This document shows, piece by piece, positions 596 through 42,917 of a stretch of DNA of 64,000 bases (within the stretch, counting starts at the first letter, position 1; every line of letters begins with the position of its first letter). Position numbers and translations under genes: made by a program. The notes beneath the pieces were generated by a model. That model saw only the letters and a program-made list of their open reading frames with translations. It was not told where the DNA came from and made no database searches. The stretch is from an uncultured Methanosarcinaceae archaeon (GTDB lineage Archaea; Halobacteriota; Methanosarcinia; Methanosarcinales; Methanosarcinaceae), in contig CAWHXP010000018.1 in the NCBI GenBank assembly GCA_963833425.1, positions 1 to 64,000 on the forward strand, written 5' to 3'.

Positions 596-761
596 AAGAT
601 ACTATATTTTTTTACGTGAATTATCATGAAAAATTTCTTTTAGGCAATGTTATATTCAACGATTTTGAAATATATTCGCTTTAAAATCGGCAAGAGGTAT
701 TGTTTTGAGTTTGATGTGATCTGTAATGATGATCATGTAAATTTTTTCGTTGGTTCTGAAC
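596..761 (+). pseudogene. IS200/IS605 tnpA remnant, left half (split by the integrated element)
   Basis: Translates to STILKYIRFKIGKRYCFEFDVICNDDHVNFFVGSE; nearly identical to the reverse complement of 29499-29660. Confidence 0.85.
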
Positions 762-785
762 CAACATAAATACCTATATTGTTTA
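749..785. repeat. Left junction: 13-bp core plus left terminal inverted repeat
   Basis: GTTGGTTCTGAAC (749-761), CAA, then CATAAATACCTATATTGTTTA (765-785). 749-765 is also a perfect GTTGGTTC-T-GAACCAAC palindrome. Confidence 0.9.
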
Positions 786-811
786 TCTATGATTAATTCC
801 ATCAAGTTAGT

Positions 812-1946
812 ATGGATAATTCAAAGATCTTAAAAGATTACTTAAGGAAGGTTAAGCAGATGGACTTACGGAAGAGACAATTGCACCTGCTGAATATACA
901 CTTATAAAGTTCATAGAATGGTGTGGAGATCGAGAATTAAAGGAATTACTACAGACGATGTTTACGATTATCTGGATTTTATAAATGCCTATACATACAT
1001 CAAAGCTGGTAAGGCAGTTAAGTACTCGCCTGGTACACAACAAAAAATCCGAACGGTTTTAAAAAAATTCTTGACTTTTATAAATCATGAACTCGGAGCC
1101 GTAATAAAATTGCGGACGCTAAAAAATGGGAAAATCCCCGAAGATATTTTGACTCGCGAAGAAATTGAAAAATTAATTGATTCATGTCTAAGTAACAGAG
1201 ATCGGGCTATAGTTGCTACTTTTTATGAAAGCGGAGCTAGAAGGGGCGAATTACTAACAGTTCAACTTAAACATGTGACTTTTGACGAGAATGGGGCAAT
1301 TCTTAATATACAGAAAGGGAAAACAGGAAGTCGCCGCGTGAGACTTGTATTAGCTTCGTCTTACCTTAAACAGTGGATTGACACGCATCCATTAAAGAAT
1401 AATCATGATGCTTACCTATTCTGTTCAACTAATTCTCCTTTTGGAGTCATCACATTTGTAGGACTTGCAGATCAACTACACAAAATAGCAAATAGAGCAG
1501 ATATCCAGCCAAAAAGAGTTTATCCACATGCATTTAGACATGCCCGAGCAACACATTTAGCCGAACAATTACCTGAACAACTTTTAAAAGAATATTTAGG
1601 CTGGACTAAATCAAGTAATATGGCGAGTGTATATGTGCATATGTCAGGTAGAGATGTGGATAATGCTATACTTAAATTGCACGGAATCGAGACTGAAGAA
1701 GCCCCCAAAAAATTTACTGTTAATAAATGCCCACGTTGTAAGGAAATAAATCCAGAAAATGCTTTATTTTGTTTTAAATGTGGACTGCCACTTACGCAGG
1801 AAGTTTCATCCACTGTAGAATCCGTAAAAACCGATTATATGCAATTTGCAGATCTTAACGAAATCCGGGAAATGAAAAATGTGTTAAAACAGGAACTTGA
1901 TGAAATTTCTAAGTTAAAGGAGTTGATGCTCAAAGCAGGAAAATAA
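812..1946 (+). CDS. Tyrosine recombinase/integrase with C-terminal Zn ribbon; two apparent N-terminal frameshifts (long ORF 918-1946)
   Basis: Catalytic motifs SGARRGE, KGKTG, HAFRH, LGW, VYVH; CPRC/CFKC Zn ribbon. ATG 812 gives MDNSKILKDYLRKV, then ADGLTEETI...WCGDRELK in another frame. Confidence 0.9.
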
Positions 1947-1989
1947 CTTTCTCGTAGAGCTTGATCCCAAAACTCAAAATTGCATCTTT

Positions 1990-2680
1990 TGATTTCAAAT
2001 TCCAAATGACTCACAAGCATAGACAGCTCATAACGAAGCTTAAAATGTGGAAGTCGAGCTATTTGATGAATTGCTGAAAGATTTATTTGTGGCAATCCCT
2101 GAACCAAGGCAAACAATAAGAAGGCCAAGCTTGTTAATTCCTGAATCTCTATTCTGTGCCATTCAGAAAGTGTACTCTCAGTTATCCAGCCGTCATCATT
2201 TAGTCTCTTTCAGAATGCAACTGAAAAAGGACAAATAGAACACGCAACCCATTTCAATGCGCCATCAAAACTCTTCAACATCTAAATATTACTCCAATTT
2301 TACAGAAATTGGTCTACGTATCTGCATTACCAGTAGCCGGATTAGCTACTAATTTCGTCGTCGATTCTACGGGATTCAGATCAACAACATTCCTCATATG
2401 CAACGAAATGGAACATGGACAGAGCAAAGAACATAAGTGCCTTAAGGCTTATATGTGTGGGTGTAAAGATCAACACAGTCGCTTCTGTGATCATAATTGA
2501 TGGGATTACAATGACTCCCCACAGTTTAGCCAATTGATTAATCAGGCATCAGAAGGCTTCTCAATGAATGAGATTTCTGCTGACTTAGCTTATTCGTCTC
2601 GCAAAAATTTTGACGCAGCAAATGTATTGGTGTGAGTCATATATCCCTTTTAAAAAAAATGTGACTGGAAGGGCAACTTG
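1990..2680 (+). pseudogene. Degraded DDE transposase (IS5-like) remnant
   Basis: Fragments ESLFCAIQKVYSQLSSR and FVVDSTGF, with multiple stops and frameshifts; boundaries approximate. Confidence 0.6.
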
Positions 2681-2693
2681 TTCTGCTATTTAG

Positions 2694-3374
2694 TCATAAT
2701 CTATAATAGTCCTTAACTGACCGGTAATTAGGGTATAACGAATGCCTCTCCATCCTTAAGAAGATATCCCAAAGAAAGTCTAAAAAATAAGAGGGGACTT
2801 GAGTCTGGCTTAGAGATTGGGTAGGGAATTCATAAGCATGATTTTCGAAATTTTCATAAGAATCTGCACGTTTACCGAGACTGTAAATATCTTCGACATC
2901 ATCGTATAAGGTTTTAAAGCTATTTTTCAAGCACTTATCAAAAAAGTGAATCGAATGGGACAACTGAATACGAAGCTCTTTGGCATGAATAGCATCTATA
3001 CAAGGATATCCTTTAATGATTTGCTCTTCAAGGATTAGATTTAAAGCCTGATCATATCTATTTAATTGTATCTCAGGATAGTGTTTTCGTATATTCCGCA
3101 AAGTTTCTAATTTTTCAATTTTCCATTTATGATATGACCCCGGATCTCGTGGAATTATTTCGATGCAACCTTTTTGTTTTAAACCTTTCAAGTGAGACCT
3201 AATGTTGTTCTCATCTAATAGATTATATTTTTTCTGAATATGTTTTATTATATCTGGCCCTGATACCACATCATTTTTAATGAGAATGTACTTGACAATT
3301 TCGATTTTTGCTTCGTTTTTATTTAAACGCTCGCCTCGGATTCTCCTCTTTTGTTCATTTTCATCTTCATTCAT
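2694..3374 (-). CDS. Winged-HTH protein, putative repressor of the element
   Basis: NIRSHLKGLKQKGCIE wHTH-like segment; divergent from the AbrB/replication operon. Confidence 0.6.
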   Translation of the reverse strand: MNEDENEQKRRIRGERLNKNEAKIEIVKYILIKNDVVSGPDIIKHIQKKYNLLDENNIRSHLKGLKQKGCIEIIPRDPGSYHKWKIEKLETLRNIRKHYPEIQLNRYDQALNLILEEQIIKGYPCIDAIHAKELRIQLSHSIHFFDKCLKNSFKTLYDDVEDIYSLGKRADSYENFENHAYEFPTQSLSQTQVPSYFLDFLWDIFLRMERHSLYPNYRSVKDYYRL

Positions 3375-3537
3375 ATGAAATTACATAAACTGCTGGATCT
3401 TAAGCTTTGTTATTTTACATTTTATAGGGGTACTGGATATAGTTTAGTTCTAATATCCAGGTGATATTCAACCTGAGGAATATCATTTTCAGATATTTAT
3501 ACATGTAATTTCCTAAGTAAGAAATAGTGGTAGTAAA

Positions 3538-3786
3538 ATGTTTAGATTTAAAAATAAAAAAATTCAACAGGTAAGAGGTTCGTTTTTTGTCTCTCTACCT
3601 AGTGAGTGGATCACAAGCAACGAAATGAAAAAAAGTGATCAAGTACGAATCGAACTATTAGAAGACGGAAATTTACAGATTTGCCCGGTCCCTCAGTCCG
3701 ACCAAGGCTCTAAGGGGACCGGAACAACGACAACAACCACCGTTTTAAGGAGATGTGCCGGCTATGGAAAATATGACCCAAAGTAA
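3538..3786 (+). CDS. AbrB/SpoVT-like DNA-binding protein
   Basis: KIQQVRGSFFVSLPSEW...KSDQVRIELLEDGNLQI swapped-hairpin signature. Confidence 0.8.
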   Translation: MFRFKNKKIQQVRGSFFVSLPSEWITSNEMKKSDQVRIELLEDGNLQICPVPQSDQGSKGTGTTTTTTVLRRCAGYGKYDPK

Positions 3787-3925
3787 TTTATTATTTGTGG
3801 AATGGTCAAAGCGTGTAAACTCTCAATATCCTGACATCTTGGAACATATGAGGAAGAGCACTGACCCCCTGGAAAGAGTCATCGCAAAACGAATTATACA
3901 AATTGCAGGTGGCAACAAAGAATGA
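3764..3925 (+). CDS. Small hypothetical protein (53 aa), not in the ORF track
   Basis: MENMTQSNLLFVEWSKRVNSQYPDILEHMRKSTDPLERVIAKRIIQIAGGNKE; AAGGAG upstream; its stop overlaps a downstream ATG (ATGA). Confidence 0.65.
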   Translation: MENMTQSNLLFVEWSKRVNSQYPDILEHMRKSTDPLERVIAKRIIQIAGGNKE

Positions 3926-3959
3926 CTAAAAACCATAATCCGAAAGATTTCAGGAGACC

Positions 3960-4532
3960 ATGAGAGTGGATTTCGATTTTGATAGTGTCAAATTGTCACC
4001 CACTTTTGCGGCTGGAATGATGGTCGAAAAATTGATCACTACCATTCCAATAAGAAAGCCGAATGCATACGAATTTTTTAGGGTTAGAGACGACTCGGAG
4101 TGGACTTTCTCACTGTATCTTCTCGATTTGAATGAAGGGGATGAGGAAAAATATATCGTAGCTCCAGAGCTGATCTCAGACGTAATGGATATTGGAAGGT
4201 TAAAGCCTGTAATGATCTACACTTTGATAACACATACCCACAAAATATTTTTCCTTTCAGATGTCCCACTCCCCGATCAAGACGGTAAAGATAATGGATA
4301 CCACCGAACTCGAAGAGAATCATACGCAATTGGCACGAAAAAATGGGTTCGGATCAAGGCTAACAAGGCTCTAGGTGCTTATGAAATATCCCTAGCAAAA
4401 GGTGAGTTGCCTGAACCTAAATGGCCAAAGGACCCAAAAACAATAAAAGATGCTTTAAATATTGCTTTTAAAAATAAGATTATTGATTCGATAAATCATC
4501 CAGTCTTGAAGCAACTTAGAGGGGAGCAGTGA
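3960..4532 (+). CDS. Hypothetical protein translationally coupled to PolA
   Basis: 190-aa ORF whose stop overlaps the PolA GTG start (GTGA); motif TIPIRKPNAYEFFRVR. The true start may be the out-of-frame ATG at 3922. Confidence 0.8.
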   Translation: MRVDFDFDSVKLSPTFAAGMMVEKLITTIPIRKPNAYEFFRVRDDSEWTFSLYLLDLNEGDEEKYIVAPELISDVMDIGRLKPVMIYTLITHTHKIFFLSDVPLPDQDGKDNGYHRTRRESYAIGTKKWVRIKANKALGAYEISLAKGELPEPKWPKDPKTIKDALNIAFKNKIIDSINHPVLKQLRGEQ

Positions 4533-6283
4533 AAATGCTCCCTATTTTTAAAAATATTTTTGTAATAGACTTCGAATTTATCGCTGATTCGGGAGAGACG
4601 TCGAAACCTGTGTGTATTGTAGCGCACGAAATTATTTCTGGGGAAACTAAAAAAGTATGGTTAGAAGGAAAAAACCCCCTTACCCTTAAACCACCATACC
4701 CTATGGATGAAACTGATTTATTTGTTGCATATTTTAGTTCTGCAGAATGGGGTTGTCATTTAGCTCTAAACTGGCCTTTGCCCATTCACGTAGTTGATTT
4801 GTATCCGGAGTTTAGAAAAATTACAAATGGGCTGCCTGGTGTCTCAAAAAGTCTATTGGGAGCTTGTCAACAATATGGAATCGCAGCCATAGCGGAATCA
4901 GAAAAGGAAAGTACTAGACAAAGGATAATGCAAGGGCCTCCTTATACTGAAAAAGAAAAAAGCTACATTATGGATTATTGCGCGTCTGACGTCATGGAAA
5001 CAGCGAAATTATTCAAAAAAATATCAATGGAGAGCAGTTTTGACATTGGCACAGCACTTTTTCGCGGTAAGTATATGGAAGCAGTAGCAATAATGGAATA
5101 TAATGGAATTCCGATCGACATTGAAACTTTAATAGCTTTAAAGGAAAATTGGACTTTAATTAAGGAGAAATTAATTCAGGAAATAGATCTCTTCTATGGA
5201 GTTTACGAAGGCACTATATTCAAGATTTCTAAGTTTGAGCAGTATTTGAATAAAAATGGGATCTCTTGGCCAAGGACTGAGAAAGGAAATTTAGAAATAA
5301 AAGATGATACTTTCAAGGAAATGGTTGTTTCATATCCGCAACTACAGGGGCTTAAAGATCTTCGGTATATTTTAGGACAATTGAAACTTTCAGAAATTTC
5401 TGTTGGATCTGACAATAGAAATAGATGCTTACTTTCGCCGTTTGCTTCTAAAACTGGAAGAAATCAGCCAAGCACAAGTAAATTCATATTTGGTCCTGCT
5501 GTCTGGCTCAGGAGTCTTATTAAACCTGAAAAAGGCAAAGTGTTAGCTCACATTGATTATTCTCAGCAAGAATTTTGTATAGCAGCTGCTTTGTCGAAAG
5601 ATCCTGAAATGAAAGCAGCCTACGAGTCAGGAGATCCTTATCTAGCGTTTGCAAAACAGGCCAGAGCAGTGCCACAGGAAGCAACAAAATCGACTCATAA
5701 AGCTGCAAGAGATCTTTTTAAAGCTTGTGTATTGGGGGTTCAATATGGTATGGGTCCCGATAGTCTGGCTTTGCGTATAGGCAAATCAACTCCTTACGCC
5801 AAAGAACTACTAAGGCACCACAAGAGAGTTTACCAAAAGTATTGGGCTTGGTGTGATCATGTCCTGGATACCACTCTTCTTTTCAGAAGGATAACTACCT
5901 GTTTTGGGTGGCAAATGCACATCTTTGGCGGAGAGAAGAAAGAAGGAAGAACAATCAAAAATTTCCCTTGTCAAGCTACGGGTGCGGAAATTCTCAGAGT
6001 CGCTTGCATTCTTCTTGTCGACAATAATATCAAACTCATTGCTCCAATCCACGACGCAATTCTAATTGAGTGTGATGAGGAAGAAGCCGATGAGACTATT
6101 TTCCAAGCCCAGAAATTAATGACCAAAGCTTCTTCCATAGTCTTGGGGCCTGGCAATTCCATTAAAACGGAAGCTAATGTCATTAAATACCCCGATAGAT
6201 ATTCTGACCCTAGGGGAGTTGAGACTTGGAATAAGATCCTAAGAATTATACAAGAAATCAAAGCCAAAAATTCTGGTGCTTGA
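4529..6283 (+). CDS. Family A DNA polymerase with 3'-5' exonuclease domain and no 5'-3' nuclease domain
   Basis: ExoI VIDFEF, ExoIII YCASDV, TGRNQPS, motif A DYSQQE, motif B RDLFKACVLGVQYGMG, NFPCQATGAE, motif C IHDA. Confidence 0.93.
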   Translation: MKMLPIFKNIFVIDFEFIADSGETSKPVCIVAHEIISGETKKVWLEGKNPLTLKPPYPMDETDLFVAYFSSAEWGCHLALNWPLPIHVVDLYPEFRKITNGLPGVSKSLLGACQQYGIAAIAESEKESTRQRIMQGPPYTEKEKSYIMDYCASDVMETAKLFKKISMESSFDIGTALFRGKYMEAVAIMEYNGIPIDIETLIALKENWTLIKEKLIQEIDLFYGVYEGTIFKISKFEQYLNKNGISWPRTEKGNLEIKDDTFKEMVVSYPQLQGLKDLRYILGQLKLSEISVGSDNRNRCLLSPFASKTGRNQPSTSKFIFGPAVWLRSLIKPEKGKVLAHIDYSQQEFCIAAALSKDPEMKAAYESGDPYLAFAKQARAVPQEATKSTHKAARDLFKACVLGVQYGMGPDSLALRIGKSTPYAKELLRHHKRVYQKYWAWCDHVLDTTLLFRRITTCFGWQMHIFGGEKKEGRTIKNFPCQATGAEILRVACILLVDNNIKLIAPIHDAILIECDEEEADETIFQAQKLMTKASSIVLGPGNSIKTEANVIKYPDRYSDPRGVETWNKILRIIQEIKAKNSGA

Positions 6284-6285
6284 TA

Positions 6286-6358
6286 AACACAACATAGGAA
6301 TTTATGGCTATTTACATCGGAATCTGTGACTATTTACATCGGAATCTGTGACTATTTA
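6286..6358 (+). repeat. 22-bp tandem iteron-like repeats (putative origin)
   Basis: CTATTTACATCGGAATCTGTGA at 6308-6329 and 6330-6351, a partial copy at 6352-6358 and a degenerate upstream copy; followed by an AT-rich tract at ~6385-6435. Confidence 0.8.
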
Positions 6359-6435
6359 AATAGACATGGATTCTACTCCGTCCTATTAATTATTTTTAGA
6401 TCTTTCTATTATTTAATATTATATAGGTAAATAAT

Positions 6436-6756
6436 ATGATAACTAAGAAAAAACTAAAATGTCATTTTATCCCCAATACTCCACTCTCTTGGATTCAGAA
6501 AGCTTTACTGTTACAAGGTAATGTAAATGCTACAAAATTAGCTTTGTATATCTGGTATGTAAAAGGTTTAAAGCAAACCAAAACGGATCTTGTTATTTCC
6601 AGTTCTACAGCTAATGATATTTTTGGTGTCAATAAAAGATCTTTCACAAGAGCTCTACAAAAATTGGTAGATTTGGGAATGATAACAACATCAATCCGTG
6701 AACGTGGTAAAAGTCCTAGAGTTACAGTAATATGGGAAGATTCTGAGATAGCATGA
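6436..6756 (+). CDS. Winged-HTH protein, possible replication initiator
   Basis: FGVNKRSFTRALQKLVDLGMITT...GKSPRVTV wHTH pattern, directly downstream of the iterons. Confidence 0.65.
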   Translation: MITKKKLKCHFIPNTPLSWIQKALLLQGNVNATKLALYIWYVKGLKQTKTDLVISSSTANDIFGVNKRSFTRALQKLVDLGMITTSIRERGKSPRVTVIWEDSEIA

Positions 6757-7182
6757 GTAATGAAGTTGGAGCAAATCTGTAACATAACTTTTCTTAATAA
6801 ATCTGCTGATCCTATAGGAGCTTCGTCTTGGAGGTTTAGACGATTAATAAGTATGTATGTTTTATAAATTTAATTTTATTTTTTAAATTGGATAAAAACA
6901 TATATAAAATATCTTGAAGCTGGTTACCGTGCAACCAAGGCTAAAGTATGGGGATTCGTTTTGGCCAAACAACGCCTTAATCTGGGACCACCAGGGAGAC
7001 TTTTATAGACTGTTTGACAAATATAGTTACCCTAGTTTAAAAAATGCCTTAAATCGCCCCAAAACCTGTCTTTTATGGCTTCATACTCAAAAGCTCGGCT
7101 ATTTCATACAGAAGAGAACTAATAAAATATTTAACATAAGATCCATATATATTACTTCAAATAAGCAAAAAACGGTGACTAA

Positions 7183-7605
7183 ATGGCTAGACCAACTAAA
7201 ATGACCCCCGATATAATCAATAGAATCGGTGACGGTATATCACTTGGACTTACTTATGCTCTTGCTGCCAATGCAGCCGGAATTACATATCAAACATTAA
7301 ATTTCTGGATGAACAAAGGAAAGAATTCAAAGTCTGGAGAATACTTTGAGTTCTATAAATATATAACTAAATGTAACGCTGATGCCGCGAAAGCTCTCCT
7401 AGAACGCTTAAACAAAGCAGCAGTTGCTGGTAATTGCCAAGTTTGCATGTGGATTTTGGAAAGGCGTTTCAGTGACGACTTCGGCAGGAGAGAATATCGT
7501 AAAATGGACATTGTTTCAGAGAATATAAATGAAAATGTTGAACTAACAATCAAGGAAGGAGATCAAATTAGAAAACAAATTTTAGCGAAGTTTGATCGGG
7601 GTTAA
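7183..7605 (+). CDS. Terminase small subunit-like HTH protein
   Basis: MARPTKMTPD...AANAAGITYQTLNFW...WILERRF..DFGRR resembles phage TerS-type proteins. Confidence 0.65.
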   Translation: MARPTKMTPDIINRIGDGISLGLTYALAANAAGITYQTLNFWMNKGKNSKSGEYFEFYKYITKCNADAAKALLERLNKAAVAGNCQVCMWILERRFSDDFGRREYRKMDIVSENINENVELTIKEGDQIRKQILAKFDRG

Positions 7606-8562
7606 GAAAGTCACGAGTTATCAGTTGATTAAGATTTTTCATCCTAAATTGGTATATTTTTACTAGAATATACTTTCCTTCTGATTTTATTCTGTGGTAT
7701 AATTGCGGTCGGACTACCAAGATCGTCACCATGGATTTTTCCCCAGATTATTCAGGCAGTAACTTTGTGTCCAACCTGCTATTCTCGTGAATTGAACTTT
7801 GAATGTTAACTGCCTGCTTATGCACATATTCTCATTTAACTTTTCTATCTGCTCGTCCTGGTGTGCCGCTGCTCGTCCTTAATGCTCATCTGACCGTAAA
7901 GTGCTTGGATCTAAGCCCAGATGCTCGAGGGTTTCTGTCTTTATCTGCAGAAGGGCACTATCGAATAGTGGAGTACAACACCCCCATCGATAACTGAAAA
8001 TGAAGCAAAAAAGATTAGAATGAAAATTTTAGAAAAGATTAGAATTAGAGATAGGTACATTGAATCATTTATCTAACTGAAATGCTCTTGATAGTTTAGT
8101 TAATTAAGTCGATATTACTCATTTTGCGCAATTTTTTATAAATTGATAAGAACTATATTTAATCAATAAGATGCAATAATTTAATATTTATAAAAATTTT
8201 TATAGTTCTAAAATATTTTAATCCAGAATAAATTTTATTCAAAAACTATTTTTCAGCTCATTAATTTGATATAACGGATTATTTCATATTGTAATTAGCC
8301 GAAAGTGACATCAATGGTATATTGTGCATGCTCACAATGGGGGTGGTAGAAGCTAAGATGCTAAGCATTTTAATCCACGCGGGGGGCAAAGCCGTCACCT
8401 CTTATAAGGTATTGCAGAAGATGATTGATCTGGACTGTCCTTAACTATGTTTCTCTATTATTTTTACAATATCGTTTTTATAAAAGAACTCTAAGTTAAT
8501 ACACGAGTTCGTCATTATTGAAAATAAGTCGCATGCAAAGAACAAAAATAGAGGAGTGAATC

Positions 8563-8988
8563 ATGAAAAAGCTATCCGATAATTTGCAAGAGCTCGCAGG
8601 CCATGTGGCGGATGCAGAAAAGAAAGTCGCGGCCGCCGAACAAGCATCCAAGGAAAAGGTAGAAGCCTCGATCCAGAAATCAAAAGCAGATGCTAAAGCA
8701 AGGCAGGAATCGTTCAAAGCTGACGTCAAAAAGCGCCAGGAAGCGACGGCTATGCATTGGCAAGAACTCCAGGAAGGTTATCATCAGAAGATTCAGCAAA
8801 TCAAGAACAAAATTAAAACCGAAAAAGAGGCTATGGAAGCCAAGCAAGCAACAAGACGGGCGGATGATTCGGAGGCGTATGCCGAGGCTGCCATCAATTT
8901 TGCCATGATGGCAATTGACGAAGCCGAAGTGGCAGTGCTGGAAGCGATTGACGCACGGGTATACGCTGAATCGTTACCTCAAAAGTGA
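8563..8988 (+). CDS. Coiled-coil hypothetical protein
   Basis: 141-aa Ala/Glu/Lys-rich helical ORF with GAGGAG upstream. Confidence 0.8.
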   Translation: MKKLSDNLQELAGHVADAEKKVAAAEQASKEKVEASIQKSKADAKARQESFKADVKKRQEATAMHWQELQEGYHQKIQQIKNKIKTEKEAMEAKQATRRADDSEAYAEAAINFAMMAIDEAEVAVLEAIDARVYAESLPQK

Positions 8989-9225
8989 GGACAGCGTTCA
9001 GATCATTGCGAAAGTTGGAGAGAAGTAGATATCGACCGAATGTCTCGTCAACGATATAATGTCGTATTAAATCGGATACATCTATTCGGAATCTTTCAAT
9101 CTTTGAGGATTGACGCGACACTAGTGCATCGATTCAAAAATTGATCAATATTTGAAGTAAGAATTAATTGATCGATAGTGAATTTATAGCTAGGGTTTAT
9201 GGACATTTTTTGAAATCGAAGCACT

Positions 9226-9333
9226 AGCTAACGCTCAGCATGAGCCATGCGGAACTGAAACCGTGAAACAACCAACAACCTGAAGCAAAAACAGAAAGGC
9301 GTAACCCGCATTGGCTCGATGCGTTTGTTAGGC
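9226..9333 (-). other. Integron attC-like recombination site (solitary)
   Basis: Minus strand GCCTAAC-AAAC-GCATCGAGCCAATGCGG...CCGCATGGCTCATGC-TGAGC-GTTAGCT: R''/L''/L'/R' layout with two unpaired bases on the R'' arm. Confidence 0.75.
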
Positions 9334-9401
9334 CACGATCAAAGGACAAAAATGAAAACTGCAAAACTGATAAAAGACAACCTACTAAGGATAAGAAACA
9401 T

Positions 9402-11232
9402 ATGTTCTACAGTAATGGTAACTACGAAGCGTTCATTCGTCCCCGCAAGCCGCAGGGCGTGGACGGGAAGTCTACCTATCTCATCGGTGGTGGCATCGCC
9501 TCGCTCGCAGCGGCGGGCTTTTTGATCCGCGACGGGCAGATGGACGGAAAACGCATCACCATCTACGAGGCGAGCAATATCGCTGGCGGCTGCCTAGACG
9601 GCATCAAGCACCCAAAGGAGGGCTACCTCTTCCGTGGCGAGCGCGAGATGGAAGACCACTACGAGTGCTTGTGGGATCTGATGCGCTCGATCCCGTCGCT
9701 CGATGTCAAGGACGCCTCGGTCCTTGAAGACTTTTACCGGATCAACAAGGATCACCACAACTACTCTCTGTGTCGGACCACTCACAAGCGCGGGCAGCCT
9801 TTCCCGACCGACGGCAAGATGCTCCTGACCCCCAAGGCGCAGGGCGAGCTGATGAAGCTCTTCTACACCCACCGAAGAGAGCTATTCGACAGGCGGTTCG
9901 AAGAATTCGTGAGCGAGGAGTTCTTCGCCAGCAACTTCTGGGTGTATTGGCTGTCGATGTTCGCCATCGGGCCCTGGCACGGTGCCCTAGAGATGAAGCT
10001 CTACATGAACCGCTTCGTCCAGCACTTCGGTGGGATGGCGGATCTCAGCACCATCAAGTTCACACGCCTCAACCAGTTCGACTCTCTGGTCCTCCCGCTA
10101 GTCAAGTGGCTCGAGCAGCAGGGCGTCATTATTGTGTACGACACGAAGGTCACCAACGTCGTGTTCGATATCACCCCGGAACGCAAGGTCGCTCGCCGGA
10201 TCGAGTGGATCCAGGCCGGAAAGCGCGGAGGACGCGACGTCACCAAGAACGACATCGTCCTCATTACCAACAGCTCTGCGGTCGAAAACACCTCTTGGGG
10301 GGACCACCACACCCCGGCCAAGTGGATTAGGGACATCCAGGAGGGCAGCATCTGGGCGATGTGGCGCAACATCGCCGCCCAGGACCCTGGCCTTCGGTCG
10401 GCCCGACAAGTTCTGTACCCACACTGACAAGAGCAGCTATGAGTCGGCATGTATCATCACCCTCGACGACAAGATTCCGCTCTACATCGAGCGGATCTGC
10501 CAGCGCGACCCGTACAGTTTCGACTGGAGCCCCATCACCGGTGGCTTGGTGACTGTGCGCGATTCCAATTGGCTGCTGTCGTGGAACGTCGAGCGCAAAC
10601 CGCACTTCAGGGACGCGCCGAAGGACCAGCTGATGATTCACGCCTACGGCACGTACAGCCTCGACCGGCCCGGCAACTACGTCAAGAAGGCGATGCGTGA
10701 GTGCACTGGCGAGGAGATCGCCCTGGAATGGCTCTATCACCTGGGGGTGCCTGACGATCAGATCGACCAGCTGGCGGCCAAGTCGGTGATCGTGCATCCG
10801 TGCATGATGCCCTACATCACGGCCTTCTTCTTGCCACGGCGTGACGGCGACCGTCCCAAGGTAGTGCCCGAGGGAGCGGTCAACTTCGGGTTCCTGGGGC
10901 AGCTCGCCGAGAGCCATCCGAGGGATGTCATCTTCACCGTCGAATACTCAGTGCGGACGGCGATGGAGGCGGTCTACACCCTGTTGGACATCGAGCGGGG
11001 CGTGCCGGAGCCGTGGGGCTCGCAGTACGACATTCGTGCGCTGCTCAACTCGGCGATCGTGCTGCGGGATGGCGAGAAGCTAAAGCTGCCCCCTGCGATC
11101 GAGGCGTACCTGGCGAACACCGAAATCGGCGAGCTGCTGAGGGACTACGGGTTCATCGGCGAACTCGGCGACAACGAGCTCACGGTCGCGATACACAAGA
11201 ATCTTCCGCAGGTGACTCAAACGGTCCTCTAG
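9402..11232 (+). pseudogene. Oleate hydratase (MCRA family), single +1 frameshift at ~10389
   Basis: MFYSNGNYEAF, IGGGIASLAAAGFLIRDG, RGEREME, then FGRPDKFC...CMMPYIT...FTVEYSVRTA in another frame; visibly GC-rich. Confidence 0.9.
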
Positions 11233-11249
11233 AGACTAGCGGAGAGACG

Positions 11250-11663
11250 GAATGGACCAGGACTGTTATATGATAATCATTCCATAGACTCTCCCAAAAC
11301 TCCAGAAAAAGCTACACATTGAATGAGGATATCGTGAAGCTGGCCATTTAATTTATTGCTGACTCCAAAAAAGTCGCACCCACCAAACCATTGTTTATGT
11401 ACTTCTGTCCAGGTGCTATGAATGCTCCTCACCACTTTCCTAAGGAGTGGGCAGATAAATACAAAAGTAAGTTCGATGATGGTTGGGACGTTTACCGGGA
11501 GAAAACCTTAGCCCAGCAGAAGAGACTTGGTATAATTCCAAAACAAACCGAACTATCTCGCCATGACCCGGATGTCAAGCCATGGGACCAATGCTCACCT
11601 GAGGAAAAGAAACTCTATGCTCGTATGATGGAAGTCTTTGGTGGGTTCCTGGAACATCTATAA
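11250..11663 (+). pseudogene. Arylsulfatase internal fragment
   Basis: FMYFCPGAMNAPHHFPKEWADKYKSKFDDGWD...YARMMEVFGGFLEH; both termini missing. Confidence 0.75.
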
Positions 11664-11737
11664 CTCATGAAGAAATAGGAAATAGTTAATCTAAACCACA
11701 ATAATAAAAAGAAATATCCAAAAAAGTTGTTGCTCTC

Positions 11738-13352
11738 CTACGATTGATGCATCGTTTTGAACATGTTCCAGATGACGCTAATATCGGTACTTACTCGTTG
11801 GAACGGGTTTGGTTCTTTGGGGATATTCAGCAGTTTGAAGACCGCCATTTGGGCTGTGCGCACCGAATATTCCATCGTGAAGACACAATCGTCTGGCACT
11901 TCAACTAACTGACCGGTGAGGGCAAGGTTGGTTGAGCCTTTCGGAACAACATCAGGTCGGTCAGTAACCTTTCTCTTCAGAAACTGGCTTGTGACGAAAG
12001 GCATCCTGCAGGGTAAGACGTTTGACGAATCCAGAATCTGCTTCACAGGTCGGCGTCGAACCCCAAGTGACGCACCAGCTCCTCCAGAATCTCTCTTCCG
12101 CTGCATTGACCCATTGGTTTGCGGACATAGTCGCCGATTTTGTCGGCGTAGAGACCTAAGCCGTAAAACACGTAAACGCCTGCTGTCTGGTTCTGGTAAT
12201 ACGGCTGATGGTTGAGGATAAAAGCCAGCGACCAGCTGGACTCTGGAAGCGAGGTGATCCCGTTCTTACCGGCTTCTTGCCCGCTGAATTTCTCCATTAA
12301 ATCAAAGAACCGCCGGTCCTTCTGGGTCACCGTGAATGACGTGAATGAAGACTCGTCGATGTGACCGGTGAAGACCGAAGGATCACGAAAGATGTCCTTG
12401 CGCTTTCGGGCGAGAGTCTCCCAAAGTGCCCATTTCCCCTCATGCGTCGGCGACGTGATCAGCTCAGGTGCGGAATCATTCGAACCAAAGGAGGCATTTG
12501 CTACCATCGAGCCCAGCGTAACTATGACAATGTCCTCCGGCCTGACTGCAATCTTCTTTTGCTTTCCGTCCTGGACCATCGTGATCCCGCAGACGGTGAT
12601 TTCGCCATCATTGTCGTTCCCGATGTCTATATCGGTCACTCGGGTCTTCCCCACGTATTGCACACCACGGTCGGTCAACCACTTAATGATCGGGCGCACC
12701 ATCAAATCGTACTGGTTATACCTGGTGTGGTGGAGCAAGTTTTGAGTTGCCATATCCGGGAACAGATGCATGAATCTCAGCAGGTAGCGTCGCATTTCAA
12801 TGGCGCTGTGCCATGGTTCAAAGGCAAAGAGCGTTTTCCACATGTGCCAGAAATTCGTTTCAAAAAAGTGCTCTGAGAAGACGTCGCTGATACGCTTATC
12901 GTTCGACGCACTTTCCAGTTTGGCAGTTAACGCGAGGAGCTCCAACTCGTCTTTCGGATTAAAACCATAAGAGTGGAAGTTCAGAATCTTACAGAGTGAA
13001 AGTTCAGAATCTTACCGTTGGCGACCAGGCGAGCCTTGTTGTTCCAGCGGACGGCATTAGTGAACTCGAGGGTGTCCTGCTTGATCGTTTTCGTCGGGTC
13101 ATCCAGTGAGGGGATGAAAGAAAGCAGATCGTACATGCAGACGTAATTCTCCTCGAACATGCGCTCGCCGCGCATGAAGTAACCTTTTTCAGGAGTGCCA
13201 GCTGAGTCAAGACATCCGCCCGGTAAACTCTCCTCCTCGTAAATGTTGATGTTCGCACCTGAAAAGCCGCCGTCTTTGATCAGGTAGGCAGCAGCAGCCA
13301 GATTTGCGATTCCTGACCCGATCAAGTGTGCCTTGCGTCCTTCATTGTTCAT
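11738..13352 (-). pseudogene. Second oleate hydratase, broken by a 23-bp duplication and a 2-bp insertion
   Basis: IGSGIANLAAAAYLIKDG, RGERMFE, FAFEPWHSAIEMRRY, NQYD, FTMEYSVRTA spread over three ORFs; duplication at 12970-12992/12993-13015; second shift near 12043. Confidence 0.9.
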
Positions 13353-13645
13353 GAACAGTCTCTCATCATATTTTTATTAAGTTAGATATAATTTTAATCC
13401 GATTAGGAAAGTACGCAGTTAAATTGAAAAACATACTGTTGACAAAAAATTATGATAGCCAGGCATGCCGATATCCTGTGAGCTTCAGCTGCTAATGTTG
13501 TCAACGATACTATAAAAAAACTGCAAGCAGTAAAGCAATATCATGTATTCTTATTTCTAATGATTTAGGCTACCATCCTTGGTATTCATAGCCCCGACTC
13601 TTTCACAGCTACGTCTTTATCATCATCAGTCGTTATTGGCTAACT

Positions 13646-14134
13646 TTATTCTTCTGCAAAAGTTGCACGCAGCTTATCTTCTTCTTCCTTTGATAGGTTA
13701 GAAGCAATGAGTTCGAACTTTGTTTGTTTCATAGCTTCTACTACCTTATCTTCAACGGCGTCGCTAGTCATTAGAAACAAAGCTGAAGTGCCTTCAGTTA
13801 CTTTGCTACGAATAGATTTTATGAAATCTTCATCGATTCCAATATGGGTCATGGAACCGGAAATTGCACCTATTGCAGCCCCAGCGACCAAGCCTAATAA
13901 CGGAATGAAAAATATCAAGCCAAATAACATGCCCCAAAAAGCACCACTCAATGCACCTACACCGGTTAAATCAGTCAAATGCTTTGTATTTGGTTTCTTT
14001 TTTCCCACAGGCCAGGTGACTATAGCAGCATCTTGTAGTTCAATCAGTTGTTTCTTACTTAAATTTTCAATTATTTCAAGTTCATTTTCGGCACCTTTAG
14101 CGGTGTCAAACTTAAGAACTGTTAAAGTTGTCAT
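13646..14134 (-). CDS. DUF1269-like membrane protein
   Basis: GALSGAFWGMLFGLIF...GIDEDFIKSIRSKVTEGTSALF glycine-zipper pattern. Confidence 0.8.
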   Translation of the reverse strand: MTTLTVLKFDTAKGAENELEIIENLSKKQLIELQDAAIVTWPVGKKKPNTKHLTDLTGVGALSGAFWGMLFGLIFFIPLLGLVAGAAIGAISGSMTHIGIDEDFIKSIRSKVTEGTSALFLMTSDAVEDKVVEAMKQTKFELIASNLSKEEEDKLRATFAEE

Positions 14135-14399
14135 TACACAATCTCCTCTTCTGCTTCACATTTATTTCTAGGTTGATTTACCGTACCATCCTATGGTATA
14201 GATTTTCTTACTAGATATTATTTAAAAATAATTATACAAAAAATAGTTTCTAAACAATTTTTTCCCTCTACTTGAATATTTTGACATTAAACAATATTTT
14301 TATATTAATTATGTATTAATATATTTTATATACACTGCTCACTTTTTCATTACTCATTTTCCACAAAATATTTTGGAATATACCATAAGGGTTTTGAGT

Positions 14400-14677
14400 C
14401 TTGACATCAAAAAATGACTGATTGCGGGGCAATTTAAGGTATTTTCTCGAATCCAAAAGGTATCAAAGGAAAAATCACTGTGAAAGACTCGTTCATAGTC
14501 GATGTTTACGGATCAGCTAACCAGCCTGTTTGTGCCTTTATGAGCGGCTACTTTGCAGGTTACCTGATAGATTATTTTGGGAAGAATATCAGTGTAAGAG
14601 AGATTAGCTGCAAAGTTACAGGAAAAAACGTATGCAGGCATGCAATTTCATTGGCATTCTCTGACGTATACCAGTGA
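14400..14677 (+). pseudogene. V4R domain fragment
   Basis: PVCAFMSGYFAG...VREISCKVTGKNVCRH; N-terminus degraded. Confidence 0.65.
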
Positions 14678-14959
14678 CTAAAAAGAGATATACCTTGATC
14701 AGATATCAGAATGCCATTTTCGGAGATAATGAACTGCTTGTGACAATGGGAAGAAGGGGGATATCTTAGGTTCATTTTATATTCACATATATCATCCCAA
14801 GCACTTAGAATAATTCCTTACCGTGTCCAGACAGTGGGAGAACTTTTCTAGACAATTGATAATTATAGACATAGCACCCAGAATAATATAGAGAATTGAC
14901 TCGTGAAAATCAGATGTTAATAAAAATCCTTAATAATATTGCATTGTGTCTAGAGGTGA

Positions 14960-15436
14960 TCATAGTTTTCCTGGCATATATGACCTCAATTTCATTAAAG
15001 TTTCTGTTCCATACCTACGTAATTCTTTGATCTCTTTTTGGTATACAAAAGCTGCTGGTACTAACATAAATGGAATGGTTGACGCAGCTTTAGCTCCTTC
15101 TGAAATAGGCAATGTGGCTAAAACATTCGCTCCAGTCGCACCATAAATAGGAACTATAGGAACTAGCATAGCTAAACCAAATGTTCTTCTGAAATGGATG
15201 CCTAATTTTGCAGCCAAGAAACCATTGGACCCTATGAGCAAACCAATACCCACACTAGGCCCTATAGTCTCAAAAAGATTATACGATGGTCCAACATAGA
15301 TCCCAAAATCAATGCCAAACAAGGAAACAAGACCATGGACTTGATCCCTATCATGATTGGAATTCCCTCCAAAACTTGATAAAACTATGCCTATATCCAG
15401 TTGCAGAGGTCCTTTTTCTACTTTTCTTTCACCCAT
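14960..15436 (-). CDS. Hypothetical membrane protein
   Basis: 158-aa hydrophobic, Gly-rich ORF. Confidence 0.5.
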   Translation of the reverse strand: MGERKVEKGPLQLDIGIVLSSFGGNSNHDRDQVHGLVSLFGIDFGIYVGPSYNLFETIGPSVGIGLLIGSNGFLAAKLGIHFRRTFGLAMLVPIVPIYGATGANVLATLPISEGAKAASTIPFMLVPAAFVYQKEIKELRRYGTETLMKLRSYMPGKL

Positions 15437-15585
15437 TATATCATTGATATCTCAAATCCATAATATAGTTTATTGCTATTATGATACTGCTCTATTTAAA
15501 TCTAAAGAGGATTTCGATTTACTTCTAATTTTTTTTCACGAGAATCCTGGTTAAATCTTTTCTGCGAATTTCTGTTTTTTATTAT

Positions 15586-15675
15586 AGAGATTTTCGATAA
15601 ACTTCGATTTCAACAAATTGCGTATATACACTTTATAAACAACCAGCCCAAAATTGGGGTTTATCAAAATCCTCT
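15586..15675. mobile_element. ~90-bp MITE copy inside the integrated element
   Basis: AGAGATTTTCGATAAAC...GTTTATCAAAATCCTCT. Confidence 0.75.
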
Positions 15676-16001
15676 TTGGATGGAACTGTGGAAATTCATC
15701 ACCTATCATAGGTGCTGTGCGTACTTTGATTTTATGATGAAATAATTGGATATCTGTATAGTTTTGGTTAAAAACTTTGAATTATCTAACCATGAGATAG
15801 GTAGGTTTTGTATGAAAACTTCTACATAAGTAAAAACGATAAATCCTATTTTTTGGAATGAAATAAAACAGGAATGGAGAAAAGTCATTTTTACAGAACA
15901 TTTAGTACAAGGTTTTATAATTTTTCTGTAAAATAACAATACCAGCAAGTATTAGGTAAAAAGTTGGAAATTAAACGATTAATCAGATATGGAGTTTACA
16001 G

Positions 16002-16871
16002 ATGACTGAAACTAAAAAATCAGATTTTTGGATAGATCATAAACTACGTGTGATGTTAGCAGAGTATAATTCATTAAGATCAGATATTAAGTCTAAAAGT
16101 GAGTTTCAAAGTCGCCTTTTACAGATCCATATTACTGTCTTAACTACTATTATTGGAGCAATTTTATATAAAAATGCCCAATTATGGCTACTGTTTCTCA
16201 TTCCAATTGAGTCATTACTATTTGGTTCTTGGTATCGAAATTATGCTTCAAGCATTCTAGGAATTGAAACATACATCAGAAAGGAAATTGAATCCAAAGT
16301 CAAGGAAATGCTAGGAGATAGATACCTAATGGGGTGGGAACACGCTAAGATGGTAGACGTTATTCCATATGCAACCTACAGAGAAAATAGTTTCTGGTCA
16401 TTAGTTCAGTTGACTTTTTTGGGACCGTCTATATTAATTTCAAAATTTGCTTTGATTTTGTTAATACAGCGGTTGCTAGTTTATACTGCCTGGGGAGTTA
16501 TCGATGTCTCCATCTTTTTTGTATTTATCCCTTTTTTATTCTGCTTAGGTTGGTTTGTATTATTCCCATCTAGTAAAAGCGGTGAAAAGAAAGAATTTGA
16601 ATCCAAAATAAAGTTTGGTCATTTCTGGCTCTCAATTTTTTTGCTTTTTTGTGGGGTATCTTCTATAGTTATTATAAAAACTTTGATTTCCATAAGAGAG
16701 CAGTTGCTAATTCACAAAGAATGGATGGTTATCCAGCTTTATCTGCTCTTTGTATTTAGTTTTGTTTTAGTGGGTTTAGGTTGGTTCGGATTCTACTCGA
16801 TTAATAATGCTTATGGAAAGATACGCTTTGAATGTAACGAAGAATTAGAGCGCGAATTCCTAAAAAAATAA
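16002..16871 (+). CDS. Multi-pass membrane hypothetical protein
   Basis: 289-aa ORF with several hydrophobic segments; N-terminal AEYNSLRSDI helix; GGAG upstream. Confidence 0.75.
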   Translation: MTETKKSDFWIDHKLRVMLAEYNSLRSDIKSKSEFQSRLLQIHITVLTTIIGAILYKNAQLWLLFLIPIESLLFGSWYRNYASSILGIETYIRKEIESKVKEMLGDRYLMGWEHAKMVDVIPYATYRENSFWSLVQLTFLGPSILISKFALILLIQRLLVYTAWGVIDVSIFFVFIPFLFCLGWFVLFPSSKSGEKKEFESKIKFGHFWLSIFLLFCGVSSIVIIKTLISIREQLLIHKEWMVIQLYLLFVFSFVLVGLGWFGFYSINNAYGKIRFECNEELEREFLKK

Positions 16872-17840
16872 AACTTGATACAATAGGTGCGAAAAAATCT
16901 GCATTTTATACGGCTTCTTGGGGATAAAATAGCTTTTTTGTTAACCAGCTTTATGGCAGATTCTTATTTAGCTAATATGTATTAATAGAAACGTTCAAAA
17001 AGAATAAACCTGGCTTTTATAATGTCATCCATTTCTTTCATGCATTATCTCTATAATTGACTGATTAGTCAGTTACACTGCAATTTTACGTTGTTAGATA
17101 AATTTTTATAGTGCTTTTTTCTTGACTCGTCCCGATGAATTTCAAAAACCAACTTTTAATGCATAAAATACCTTTAGAATTTTATCTAAGTTTGTCTATT
17201 AAACAAGTCTCATAAATAGGATCAAATTCTTCTGACTCAAGAATACTACTCTTGGCATCCAAAAATCTCATCTTTGGTATTTTGAAAATACTTTATAGTA
17301 TAAAAATTATAAAAATATAATTTTATAATTCATCTAAGGCATAATTTTTAATAAGTTAATGATAATTCTATTAACTCTACGATTTAAGTCTCACTGTGAG
17401 CTTCTAATGAGCTCACACATTTATCTAGAACTTTCCTATTCCTCTGTCTAAATACTTTACAACATGCTATTAAGTGACTTTTGGATAGGCTATGGGCTCA
17501 GACATATTCACTTTTGAAGCAAGCTGAATCTCTTTCAAATGCATGGACTAGTTGAAGGATGGTGAAACTTTAATCTAGCATGGCTGATATTAGGGAAAAG
17601 TGAAGATTTCGTTAGTTTTCGCTCACCCGGAGATTAAAATGAAATCTATCCTATAGTTTTACTATAGAAACTGCAACCAAACTTAACCAGTTACATATGG
17701 TCAAGAAGAGATTCATAACTAGTAGATATATTGAATGGGTATATTCTATTTGATGCCCTGCGAAGTACAGAATAAATATAGGATTATTATCTTGATAAAG
17801 AAATATTATTTAATTTTCAAGTAATAATTAAAGAAAGCTG

Positions 17841-17877
17841 TAGACAATACAGGTATTTATGGTAGTTGGTTCTGAAC
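17841..17877. repeat. Right junction: right terminal inverted repeat plus 13-bp core
   Basis: TAGACAATACAGGTATTTATG (17841-17861; 19/21 match to the reverse complement of 765-785), GTA, then GTTGGTTCTGAAC (17865-17877). Confidence 0.9.
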
Positions 17878-18170
17878 TAAACTATTTTTTTACAATAGTG
17901 ATGCAGATTATAAAAAGTACCACAGCAAGAAAATGCTTAAAGAATATTCTGAAATAAAAAACAGCTATGAGGTGATAAACTTTAGAACAAATGAGATTGC
18001 ATTGGAACTGTGGGTGATGGCCCAACTTCCGATGAAATAAAAGCTATTTCAAAATCGGGGAAAGTGGAACGAAAACGAAGCATATTAAGCAAATGAGACT
18101 ATTTCATTTTGAATAATTCCTGAATAGCCAGAGCAAAGGAGCTAGAAAACCTATTGCTTGCAGAGGAATG
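17865..18170 (+). pseudogene. IS200/IS605 tnpA remnant, right half
   Basis: VGSELNYFFTIVMQIIKSTTARK continues the left half exactly; matches the reverse complement of ~29250-29511. Confidence 0.85.
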
Positions 18171-29199: not shown

Positions 29200-29664
29200 T
29201 GCTGCCCCCATCTCAAAAAACAGAGTATGTTAGCTCTCCACGTTGGATATATAGGAATTGTTCAAAATCAAATACTTCAATTTGCTTAGTATACTTCGTT
29301 TTCGTTCTACTTTCCCCGATTTTGAACATAGCTTTTATTTCATCGGAAGTTGGGCCACCACCCGCAGTTCCAATGTAATCTCATTTGCTCTAAAGTTCAT
29401 CACCTCATAGCTGTTTTTTATCTCAGAATATTCTTTAAAGTATTTTCTTGCTGTGGTACTTTTTATAATCTGCATCACTATTGTAAAAAAATAGTTTAGT
29501 TCCGAACCAACGAAAAAATTTACATGATCATCATTACCGATCACATCAAACTCAAAACAATACCTTTTACCAATTTTAAAGCGAATATATTTCAAAATCG
29601 TTGAATATACCATTGCCTACAAGAAATTTTTCATGATAATTCACGTAAAAAAATATATTATTTT
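29200..29664 (-). pseudogene. IS200/IS605 tnpA remnant, uninterrupted copy containing the empty-site equivalent (29499-29511)
   Basis: FEFDVIGNDDHVNFFVGSELNYFFTIVMQIIKSTTARK; the His-hydrophobic-His motif is degenerate (HVN). Confidence 0.85.
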
Positions 29665-29755
29665 AGAGAATTTAGAGAAGCTTCTAAATTTTGTCCTATG
29701 CTTAGGAATTGTATGTTTGTATCTAGATCGTTAAAATAAAAGTTTATCGAAATTT
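29665..29755. mobile_element. MITE copy abutting the tnpA remnant
   Basis: AGAGAATTTAGAGAAGCTTC...AGTTTATCGAAATT; same arrangement as 507-595. Confidence 0.6.
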
Positions 29756-41639: not shown

Positions 41640-41730
41640 AGAGGATTTCGATAAACCTCTAAATTTTGTCATATGCTACAAATTAGTATGTATATGACTC
41701 ATGAAAATTAAAGGTTTCTCAAAATCCTCT
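41640..41730. mobile_element. MITE copy
   Basis: AGAGGATTTCGATAAACCT...AGGTTTCTCAAAATCCTCT. Confidence 0.8.
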
Positions 41731-42697: not shown

Positions 42698-42782
42698 CGA
42701 CGAGAGGGGGATTCGAACCCCCGAGATGTGGAACATCACGGGATTAGCAATCCCGCGCCATACCGGGCTTGGCTATCTCGTC
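42698..42782 (-). tRNA. tRNA-Ser(GCU)
   Basis: GACGAGA acceptor stem, CGGGA-TTGCTAA-TCCCG anticodon arm, long variable arm, GGTTCGAATCC; CCA not encoded. Confidence 0.97.
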
Positions 42783-42917
42783 ACTGAGATGATTTGAAAA
42801 TGTGTTTTTGAAACGCAGTTTATATATTTAATTCTTTCTAGAGAGGTAATTCTTATAAACAATTTTCTCCACTGTATATAAATTATATAATTAAAACTGG
42901 CTGTAAAAAATTTCAAG

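Follow-up and report, generated by a model that had tools for sequence, protein, structure and literature searches.

An integrated element of a Methanosarcinaceae archaeon bounded by a 13-bp repeat within an IS200-like transposase gene

Introduction

Among the mobile elements of archaea that encode a tyrosine recombinase (integrase), the closest comparisons for the element studied here are the virus SNJ2 and the classical integrase elements, which have the integrase gene at one end and a short direct repeat that serves as the core of the attachment (att) site. In SNJ2, a pleolipovirus, a 14-bp direct repeat has been shown experimentally to be the att core (PMC5861418). Elements of the SNJ2 type integrate and excise as a circle. 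The integrases of archaea target mostly tRNA genes, together with a few other genes or intergenic sites, and the sections on targets in the review that describes them do not name an insertion sequence (IS) (PMC8371274). Here, we describe an integrated mobile element in the first 64,000 nucleotides of contig CAWHXP010000018.1 (assembly GCA_963833425.1) of an uncultured, methane-producing Methanosarcinaceae archaeon, a stretch that we call the window throughout. The element shares the layout just described, with the integrase gene (int) next to its left end and a core of 13 bp, and would also pass through a circular form. Unlike the classical elements, it is inserted in the transposase gene (tnpA) of an IS200-family insertion sequence and not at the 3' end of a tRNA gene, and its integrase is Xer-like and has a C-terminal zinc ribbon. 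The word “zinc” is absent from the archaeal tyrosine recombinase review (PMC8371274).

The element had been delimited from the sequence alone in an earlier reading (here, the original prediction), which offered two interpretations of its 13-bp direct repeat, the att core of a tyrosine recombinase or a casposon-like arrangement of terminal inverted repeats and target-site duplication. The present analysis covers the window and its relatives. An integrase-alignment scan of a genome collection provided 41 loci, and left junctions were read in the 12 of them (L001-L012) with an integrase identity of at least 72% and upstream sequence present. One more locus (L023) begins within int and was excluded, and the other 28, which are more distant, lie outside the junction set. 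The right side of the relatives was viewed up to 10 kb downstream per locus. The Pfam scan comprised the 24 open reading frames (ORFs) of positions 1-20774, the PHROGs scan the 19 ORFs of the element, and PADLOC was run on 12 ORFs.

Results

Ends of the element and its empty site. The 13-mer GTTGGTTCTGAAC is found at both 749-761 and 17865-17877 on the forward strand, the two places where the original prediction had put it. By itself, a 13-mer repeat is not rare, and the window contains 247 pairs of exact direct repeats of this length; what makes this pair meaningful is its position relative to an uninterrupted paralogue of the flanking DNA, not the repetition itself. By BLAST of the flanks against the window, positions 518-761 align with 29746-29499 (87% identity) and positions 17865-18130 with 29511-29244 (92%). 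Since the two alignments meet there, the flanks are the two halves of a sequence that is whole at 29244-29746 on the reverse strand, and their overlap is exactly the 13-mer. This uninterrupted and degenerate copy, the empty site, has the core GTTGGTTCgGAAC at 29499-29511, with one mismatch in 13 to GTTGGTTCTGAAC. An identical short sequence at both junctions that is present once in the empty site (there with one base of 13 different) is the layout of an att core, and the expectation that removal of the element would recover a match to the paralogue, save for one base, was borne out. The integrated mobile element consists of bases 762-17864 plus one copy of the 13-mer, a net insertion of 17,116 bp.

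The ends are also marked by an inverted repeat, 765-785 against 17841-17861, in which 19 of 21 positions are complementary, as previously described. The maximum among 3000 random pairs of 40-mers drawn from the window, scored by their best 21-nt inverted match, was 15/21. By ungapped extension, the repeat grows to 759-785 against 17841-17867 (23/27) and reaches into the direct repeat, the left arm into the AAC and the right arm into the GTT of the core. On the left, the core (attL, 749-761) reads GTT-GGTTCTG-AAC and corresponds to the codons V-G-S-E plus one base of tnpA; on the right (attR, 17865-17877), its first base is where the flank starts, at position q202 of the IS query. The two repeats, both given here on the forward strand, would be the P' arm (759-785) and the P arm (17841-17867) of the attachment site. 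The left one appears to overlap a TATA-like sequence, TTTATCTA, 24 nt ahead of the int start, and because of this overlap the predicted binding of the integrase at the left repeat could also control int.

An IS200-like tnpA as the target. The interrupted sequence is a remnant of an IS200-like tnpA, with its left half at 518-748 and its right half at 17878-18130, both on the forward strand. The left half encodes ...CFEFDVICND-DHVNFFV and matches the IS query up to q217. Within the paralogue, the ORF at 29335-29613 on the reverse strand has a Pfam match to Y1_Tnp (PF01797; E=1.2e-5; 25.9 bits, cut-off 23), and an intact relative of the target IS, at L008:18125-18511, has a much clearer one (E=1.2e-24), so that the target carries the Y1 HUH transposase gene by which the IS200/IS605 group is recognized. 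The IS unit measures ~630 bp and has conserved end regions outside tnpA. A tblastn search with the intact TnpA of L008 places the break directly after ...DGDHVH(L/F)FVGAE. The 13-mer spans the codons V-G-(A/S)-E plus one base, immediately 3' of the HUH motif, i.e., the motif DHVH(L/F)FV directly precedes the core.

The IS copies in the window contain stop codons, in line with the earlier description of the target as a dead IS, and the statement that it is not a tRNA gene also stands, the nearest one in the window being a distant tRNA-Ser (42697-42783). This is the sole tRNA gene of the window, and none was found in 20 related loci; a tRNA target was rejected. A third, short IS200-like fragment, related to the left part of the IS with 74% identity over 91 bases, is located at 41640-41729, ~1 kb from the tRNA-Ser gene.

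The integrase. The left end of the element is followed by a gene for a Xer-like tyrosine integrase with a C-terminal CxxC...CxxC zinc ribbon (812-1946, forward strand; longest ORF, 918-1946). It matches Pfam PF00589 (E=1e-21) and is the only recombinase detected among the 24 ORFs, 51 nt inside the left core. An alignment of 14 homologues, the window copy included, shows no variation at residues R108, K135, H204, R207, W229 and Y239, which, judging from the motifs, would be the complete R-K-H-R-(H/W)-Y catalytic set of a tyrosine recombinase. The closest solved structures are Pyrococcus abyssi XerA (4a8e, E=1.3e-13), XerH and XerD. Assignment to the XerA equivalog itself was discarded, with a score of 103 bits for NCBIfam NF040815 against a cut-off of 220. 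The best named relatives of the integrase come from Methanosarcina (75% identity to M. vacuolata). The core ends 51 nt ahead of the start codon at 812, and int lies wholly inside the element; an integrase of the suicidal SSV type was rejected, given that the att site is outside the int ORF and the gene is not split. The zinc ribbon is found at 1725-1793 (residues 270-292 of the 342-aa ORF), and a coiled-coil-like tail comes after it. Its four cysteines are conserved with few or no exceptions across the 14 homologues.

Left junctions of the relatives. The loci closest to the window integrase belong to Methanosarcinaceae metagenome-assembled genomes (MAGs). The left terminal repeat is kept, at the same distance from int, in all 12 relatives examined, in the form (A)ACATAAA(T/A)A(C/A)CT(A/G)TATTGTTTATCTA; L008, L009 and L011 deviate further from it. 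A lack of these terminal sequences in related elements had been named beforehand as the observation that would speak against the proposed ends, and at the left ends it was not encountered. The left flank consists of this IS200-like tnpA, interrupted at an identical position, in 6/12 relatives (L001-L004, L010 and L012), although L004 shows no difference from L003 over 2876 bases, so that the two may be a single copy. These six flanks match the IS query to position 217, three bases beyond the core, and L005, which retains ~40 nt of the IS, is a residual seventh case. One genome has four insertions (L002, L003, L010 and L012). Their upstream flanks are unique and the elements are 96-99.5% identical over the part compared, which indicates separate and fairly recent insertions. 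From these comparisons, we consider that IS200 is a recurrent landing site of the element family and not an accidental dead target. Orphan right halves of IS200 in L030 and L031 were read as well and are not element junctions.

The trinucleotide AAC is present in 13/13 junctions (window included), and GTT is found exactly seven bases upstream in 12/13, L008 having GTA. Seven intact empty IS sites with the frame GTT-N7-AAC were also seen. The seven central bases (N7) vary. They are GGTTCTG in the window, GTTGCTG in L001 and L005, GGAGCTG in L002, L003, L004, L010 and L012, TAAAGTA in L006, TATCGTA in L007, GGTGTTA in L008, TCGAAGT in L009 and TTCAGCT in L011. The variation is not coupled to that of the repeat, as the 21-nt repeats of the window and L001 are the same while their N7 differ, and L005, L006 and L010 have another repeat variant in common and three different N7. 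Immediately after the 13-mer, the first base of the element can be C, T or A. The original prediction had proposed that a constant 13-mer would support a site-specific att site and variable 13-mers with constant termini a transposition; at the left junctions the outcome is divided in a way that this alternative did not anticipate, with a constant terminal repeat, a target position that is constant in 6-7 of the 12 relatives, and a constant GTT-N7-AAC frame around seven variable bases. Since only the left junctions of the relatives are visible, a variable N7 is no argument on its own for a target-site duplication.

In two of the three genomes where both could be compared, empty and occupied IS copies differ in N7. 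In the window genome the occupied site has GGTTCTG and the empty one GGTTCGG; in the MAG of L001, L005 and L008, the occupied site has GTTGCTG and the empty ones GGAGCTG and GGTGTTG. Small as these numbers are, the difference weakly fits a need for identity between the overlaps of the two recombining sites.

A model for the core site. A short centre of 6-8 bases between inverted half-sites is the standard substrate of tyrosine recombinases. When the circle junction of the element is reconstructed, the best dyad has its centre at core position 7 (24/35 pairs; the next best centre has 20), so the symmetric junction that had been foreseen for the circular form does appear. Read from the dyad centre, the reconstructed attP is TATGgTaGTT-[GGTTCTG]-AACcAaCATA. 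The same arrangement, TTTTTGTT-[N7]-AACCAAAG, is seen in the empty IS sites, and a rough motif common to all four half-sites would be TnTTnGTT. A search pattern derived from these same sites, TTnGTT-N7-AACnAA, has two matches in the window against 0.19 expected, one in the left junction and the other in the empty paralogue; given the origin of the pattern, the count has descriptive value only.

We propose that the 13-bp direct repeat is an att core and that the Xer-like integrase inserted the element into the IS200 tnpA by conservative site-specific recombination, a reading to which we assign a probability of about 0.75. It is favored because the only recombinase found adjoins the left end and has XerA as its closest structure, because the reconstructed attP is quasi-palindromic, and because the relatives reuse the same position of the IS200 tnpA. 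According to this model, the 21-27-bp terminal inverted repeats would be the P and P' arms, flanking a single 13-mer in the circle, and the integrase would pair this quasi-palindromic attP (right repeat, one 13-mer and left repeat) with the matching site in the IS200 tnpA. Two integrase half-sites, inverted relative to each other, would have GTT and AAC as their innermost bases, the strands would be exchanged at the edges of the central 7-base overlap, and one core would be left at each junction after the exchange. The IS200 tnpA would act as a conserved, multi-copy and dispensable attB that makes several copies per genome possible. As for the changes in N7, one possibility is that occasional exchange across unlike overlaps, followed by replication, passes the N7 of the target to the element. 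The arrangement recalls Xer/dif recombination, in which dif has an 11-6-11 layout and cleavage takes place at the spacer edges, according to the pertinent section of the review (PMC8371274); the half-sites and centre here would be ~8-7-8. It departs from Xer/dif in that the element encodes the enzyme, has arms of up to 27 bp and is inserted at a target other than dif. Other elements that make use of Xer-type enzymes are the IMEX elements and the TnPZ/XerT system of Helicobacter.

Several observations weigh against this model. N7 differs among elements whose integrases are 87-92% identical and whose terminal repeats are identical, and it tracks the IS variant of the host and not the lineage of the element; because of this, a strictly homology-dependent integrase would need an extra step. 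In 5/12 relatives (L006-L009 and L011) the left flank is not IS200, although the junction still reads GT(T)-N7-AAC. The recurrence of GTT in four of these five flanks indicates that it reflects the choice of target and not a shared ancestry of the flanks. Both ends of the element are visible in the window only. A search of all 41 loci for the 21-nt right repeat, with a tolerance of 4 mismatches, located no copy outside the window, and a search with each locus's own repeat and 13-mer in 11 loci, six of them with the full 10 kb downstream, gave no convincing right end. Nor did repeat finding in L001 or the direct reading of L001, L006, L008 and L019. On the right side of L001, whose element appears to end ahead of a nif operon with an upstream region that L020 also has, there is no IS200 right half; an inverted fragment of the left end of the IS is found instead, and for that reason this side is taken to be rearranged. 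The window integrase itself is damaged. Its longest ORF has 342 aa against 378 aa in the relatives, and two 1-base deletions near 850 and 945, due either to real decay or to sequencing error, are apparent relative to six relatives. They move the first ~45 codons into two other frames but spare the catalytic part, so the gene is not intact at full length and the activity of its product is doubtful. With this damage and its ~9.6 kb of extra cargo, the copy in the window may no longer be self-mobile.

Alternative explanations. The variable centre suggests another behavior for the same enzyme, that of a “tyrosine transposase” of the Tn916 or CTnDOT kind with flexible targets, which would need only the GTT and AAC and would accept any seven bases between them. 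The element would then adopt the central bases of its target, and the perfect 13-bp identity in the window would be the result of mismatch resolution. The eight different N7 in 13 junctions, which track the host IS variant or the flank, and the five relatives outside IS200 are what one would expect from such an enzyme, and Tn916 and CTnDOT also have a tyrosine recombinase, variable central “coupling” bases and several insertion sites. Those elements, however, are not known to be flanked by a perfect direct repeat, whereas here the 13-mers are identical. When a tyrosine recombinase exchanges strands across unlike overlaps, each daughter has different central bases at its two ends, and that mark is missing from the window. 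Furthermore, 6-7 of the 12 relatives are at one base position of one gene, and the differences between empty and occupied N7 in two of three genomes are at odds with indifference to the centre. We consider this explanation unlikely.

The other interpretation offered by the original prediction, a casposon- or transposon-like insertion, supposes cuts staggered by 13 bases, joining of the termini and a gap repair that duplicates the 13-mer, the GTT-N7-AAC frame being the preference of a symmetric complex. It would account for variable 13-mers next to constant termini, for the perfect identity of the two copies and for a palindromic target consensus. Casposons share with the element the terminal inverted repeats, a direct repeat of similar length, a DNA polymerase of their own and, in relatives of Methanosarcina, a site-preferring insertion (PMC4779613). 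The resemblance ends with this layout. Scans with Pfam, PHROGs, NCBIfam and PADLOC detected no Cas1, DDE or other transposase, with some ORFs of unassigned function remaining; the polymerase is of family A and not of the casposon family B, and the recombinase present is a tyrosine integrase, an enzyme type that makes no duplications, as stated in the relevant part of the review (PMC8371274). A casposon was rejected. The inverted repeat also runs into the direct repeat (AAC/GTT), and a first element base that may be C, T or A is unusual for the tip of a transposon. The 13-mer is probably not a target-site duplication, and an insertion of this kind is highly improbable; of the two original alternatives, the att core is the better supported, the duplication being left without a matching enzyme. 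The simplest alternative would be no insertion at all, only an assembly join or homologous recombination between IS200 copies, with the 13-mer and the inverted repeats as coincidences. The abundance of 13-mer repeats in the window is compatible with it, as are the related assemblies that break within elements (L002, L003 and L010 stop 1.2-1.8 kb past int) and the IS-associated rearrangement on the right side of L001. It has to face two IS halves that complete each other exactly on the paralogue, where they overlap by 13 bases, an inverted repeat beyond anything in 3000 random trials, and a junction that recurs in 12 independent loci of other assemblies, and we give it next to no weight.

Gene content of the element. 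Behind the integrase, a winged-helix regulator with a LexA-type DNA-binding domain (2694-3374, reverse strand) has only its N-terminal ~170 aa in common with the 358-413-aa homologues of the relatives. The following genes are all on the forward strand and begin with a small DNA-binding protein of the AbrB/MazE fold (3538-3786; PF04014, E=2.3e-6) and a conserved 190-aa protein without family match (3960-4532), 54% identical to its L001 homologue. A family A DNA polymerase of 584 aa comes next (4529-6283; PF00476, 8e-28; phrog_17, 3e-50). Three tandem 22-bp repeats (iterons) at 6292-6357, of which L001 has two copies (15218-15261), are a candidate replication origin. The stretch 6286-6306, running into the first iteron, matches the terminal repeat at 17/21 positions, and the 22-bp repeats may be either the origin or extra sites for the protein that binds the ends. 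A 106-aa protein at 6436-6756, 92% identical to its L001 homologue, shows a weak DnaD-like or replication-initiator similarity (phrog_186, E=0.0016). A fuller replication module is found between the regulators and the small-terminase-like gene in L005 (13270-18412) and L012 (13276-15804), with a DnaG-type zinc-ribbon/Toprim primase, large proteins of unassigned function and a family A polymerase that includes a 3'-5' exonuclease domain.

The last gene of this part codes for a small-terminase-like protein of 140 aa (7183-7605, forward strand; phrog_4102, E=4.9e-25). Among the phage sequences searched, it matches a single protein, ORF8 of Methanobacterium virus PhiF3 (25.6% identity, E=3e-8), which directly precedes genes for a putative large terminase and a portal. 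This being the usual place of a small terminase, the position of ORF8 supports the assignment of the element protein, which is based on the phrog_4102 match and on the PhiF3 gene order. The family comprises 654 database clusters, and the best 120 are all at least 67% identical; some members carry the automatic labels “transposase” or “abortive infection protein.” The protein is far better conserved than the other genes of the element. A profile search of the PDB with the family alignment produced no meaningful match.

The cargo (7620-17220, ~9.6 kb) is not present in the short relative L001 and includes ORFs without assigned function. It holds a DUF1269 gene (13646-14134, reverse strand) and a high-GC block (9400-13350; 50-64% GC against ~35% around it) with two oleate hydratase (MCRA) genes. 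Both genes (9402-13352) are broken and have opposite orientation, one of them being disrupted where a 23-bp tandem duplication lies (12970-13015); the block looks like cargo acquired from high-GC organisms that decayed later. PADLOC gave only weak coiled-coil-type matches, for 8563-8988, and the ESM Atlas returned only unnamed clusters for a 289-aa cargo protein. Near the right end, a conserved non-coding block (17225-17491, forward strand) is 78% identical to L001 and 88% to L019. The copies, of ~260 bp, are located at L001:16609-16828 and L019:18866-19123, the latter next to quite a different integrase. The block contains a conserved hairpin, with too little covariation in a consensus folding of three sequences. 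Rfam detected no match over positions 1-31000 at E values up to 0.1, this block included, and megablast of the whole element against phage and plasmid collections found no match.

Genomic context. The element is surrounded by archaeal housekeeping genes, namely DUF2150, UPF0179, a glycerol-1-phosphate-dehydrogenase-like Fe-ADH, eIF2-gamma, S24e and a Rpo7-like protein, and further along the window there are an F420-dehydrogenase beta subunit, an archaeal glutamate synthase and aEF1-alpha. At 32854-35625, a TPR-repeat protein is found near a CHAT-domain (caspase-like protease) protein, and the two may work as a pair in defence or signalling. CHAT-like sequence is found in L019 as well, beside its conserved right-end block. 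L001 (17205-21011) and L020 (7240-10925), which come from different genomes, have the same nifH-nifI-nifD-like operon, immediately preceded in each case by an integrase element; their integrases are ~51% identical, as judged from the identities to the window integrase. This suggests that the region upstream of nif is a second hot spot for integration or recombination.

Discussion

The gene set of the element resembles that of the phage-inducible chromosomal islands (PICIs), with an integrase, regulators, a replication module, iterons and a small-terminase homologue. As in PICIs, no large terminase or portal genes were found with Pfam and PHROGs, and none of the 19 element ORFs had a PHROGs match to capsid, portal, large terminase or tail families. 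The element differs from PICIs in its archaeal host and its family A polymerase. By its gene content, it looks like a satellite of head-tailed archaeal viruses. According to the section of a 2025 preprint that deals with archaeal satellites, only pSSVx and pSSVi, both linked to spindle-shaped viruses, had been described before it (10.1101/2025.02.15.638363). A more ambitious and tentative proposal, which we consider possible but doubtful, would have these elements as a Methanosarcinaceae family of ~7-17 kb and as the first PICI-like satellites of head-tailed archaeal viruses, equipped for their own replication; their small-terminase homologue would divert the packaging of the helper, the HUH-proximal codons of the IS200 tnpA would be a multi-copy attB, and the overlap of attP would be retuned to the IS variant of the host.

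The mechanism is of a known kind, and the new parts are the target and the satellite-like make-up. An open-access literature search retrieved neither a case of an integrase with an IS200 transposase gene as its attB nor a description of such elements in Methanosarcina. When the landing site belongs to another mobile element, it is preserved by the protein motif that it encodes, exists in many copies and has no cost for the host when broken; being multi-copy and dispensable, it accounts for the presence of at least four copies of one element in a single genome. The GTT-N7-AAC frame provides a concrete and testable model of the core site of the integrase, and an integrase that targets IS200 could serve as a genetic tool for methanogens. 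If the satellite reading is true, the life style of the PICIs would extend to the archaea.

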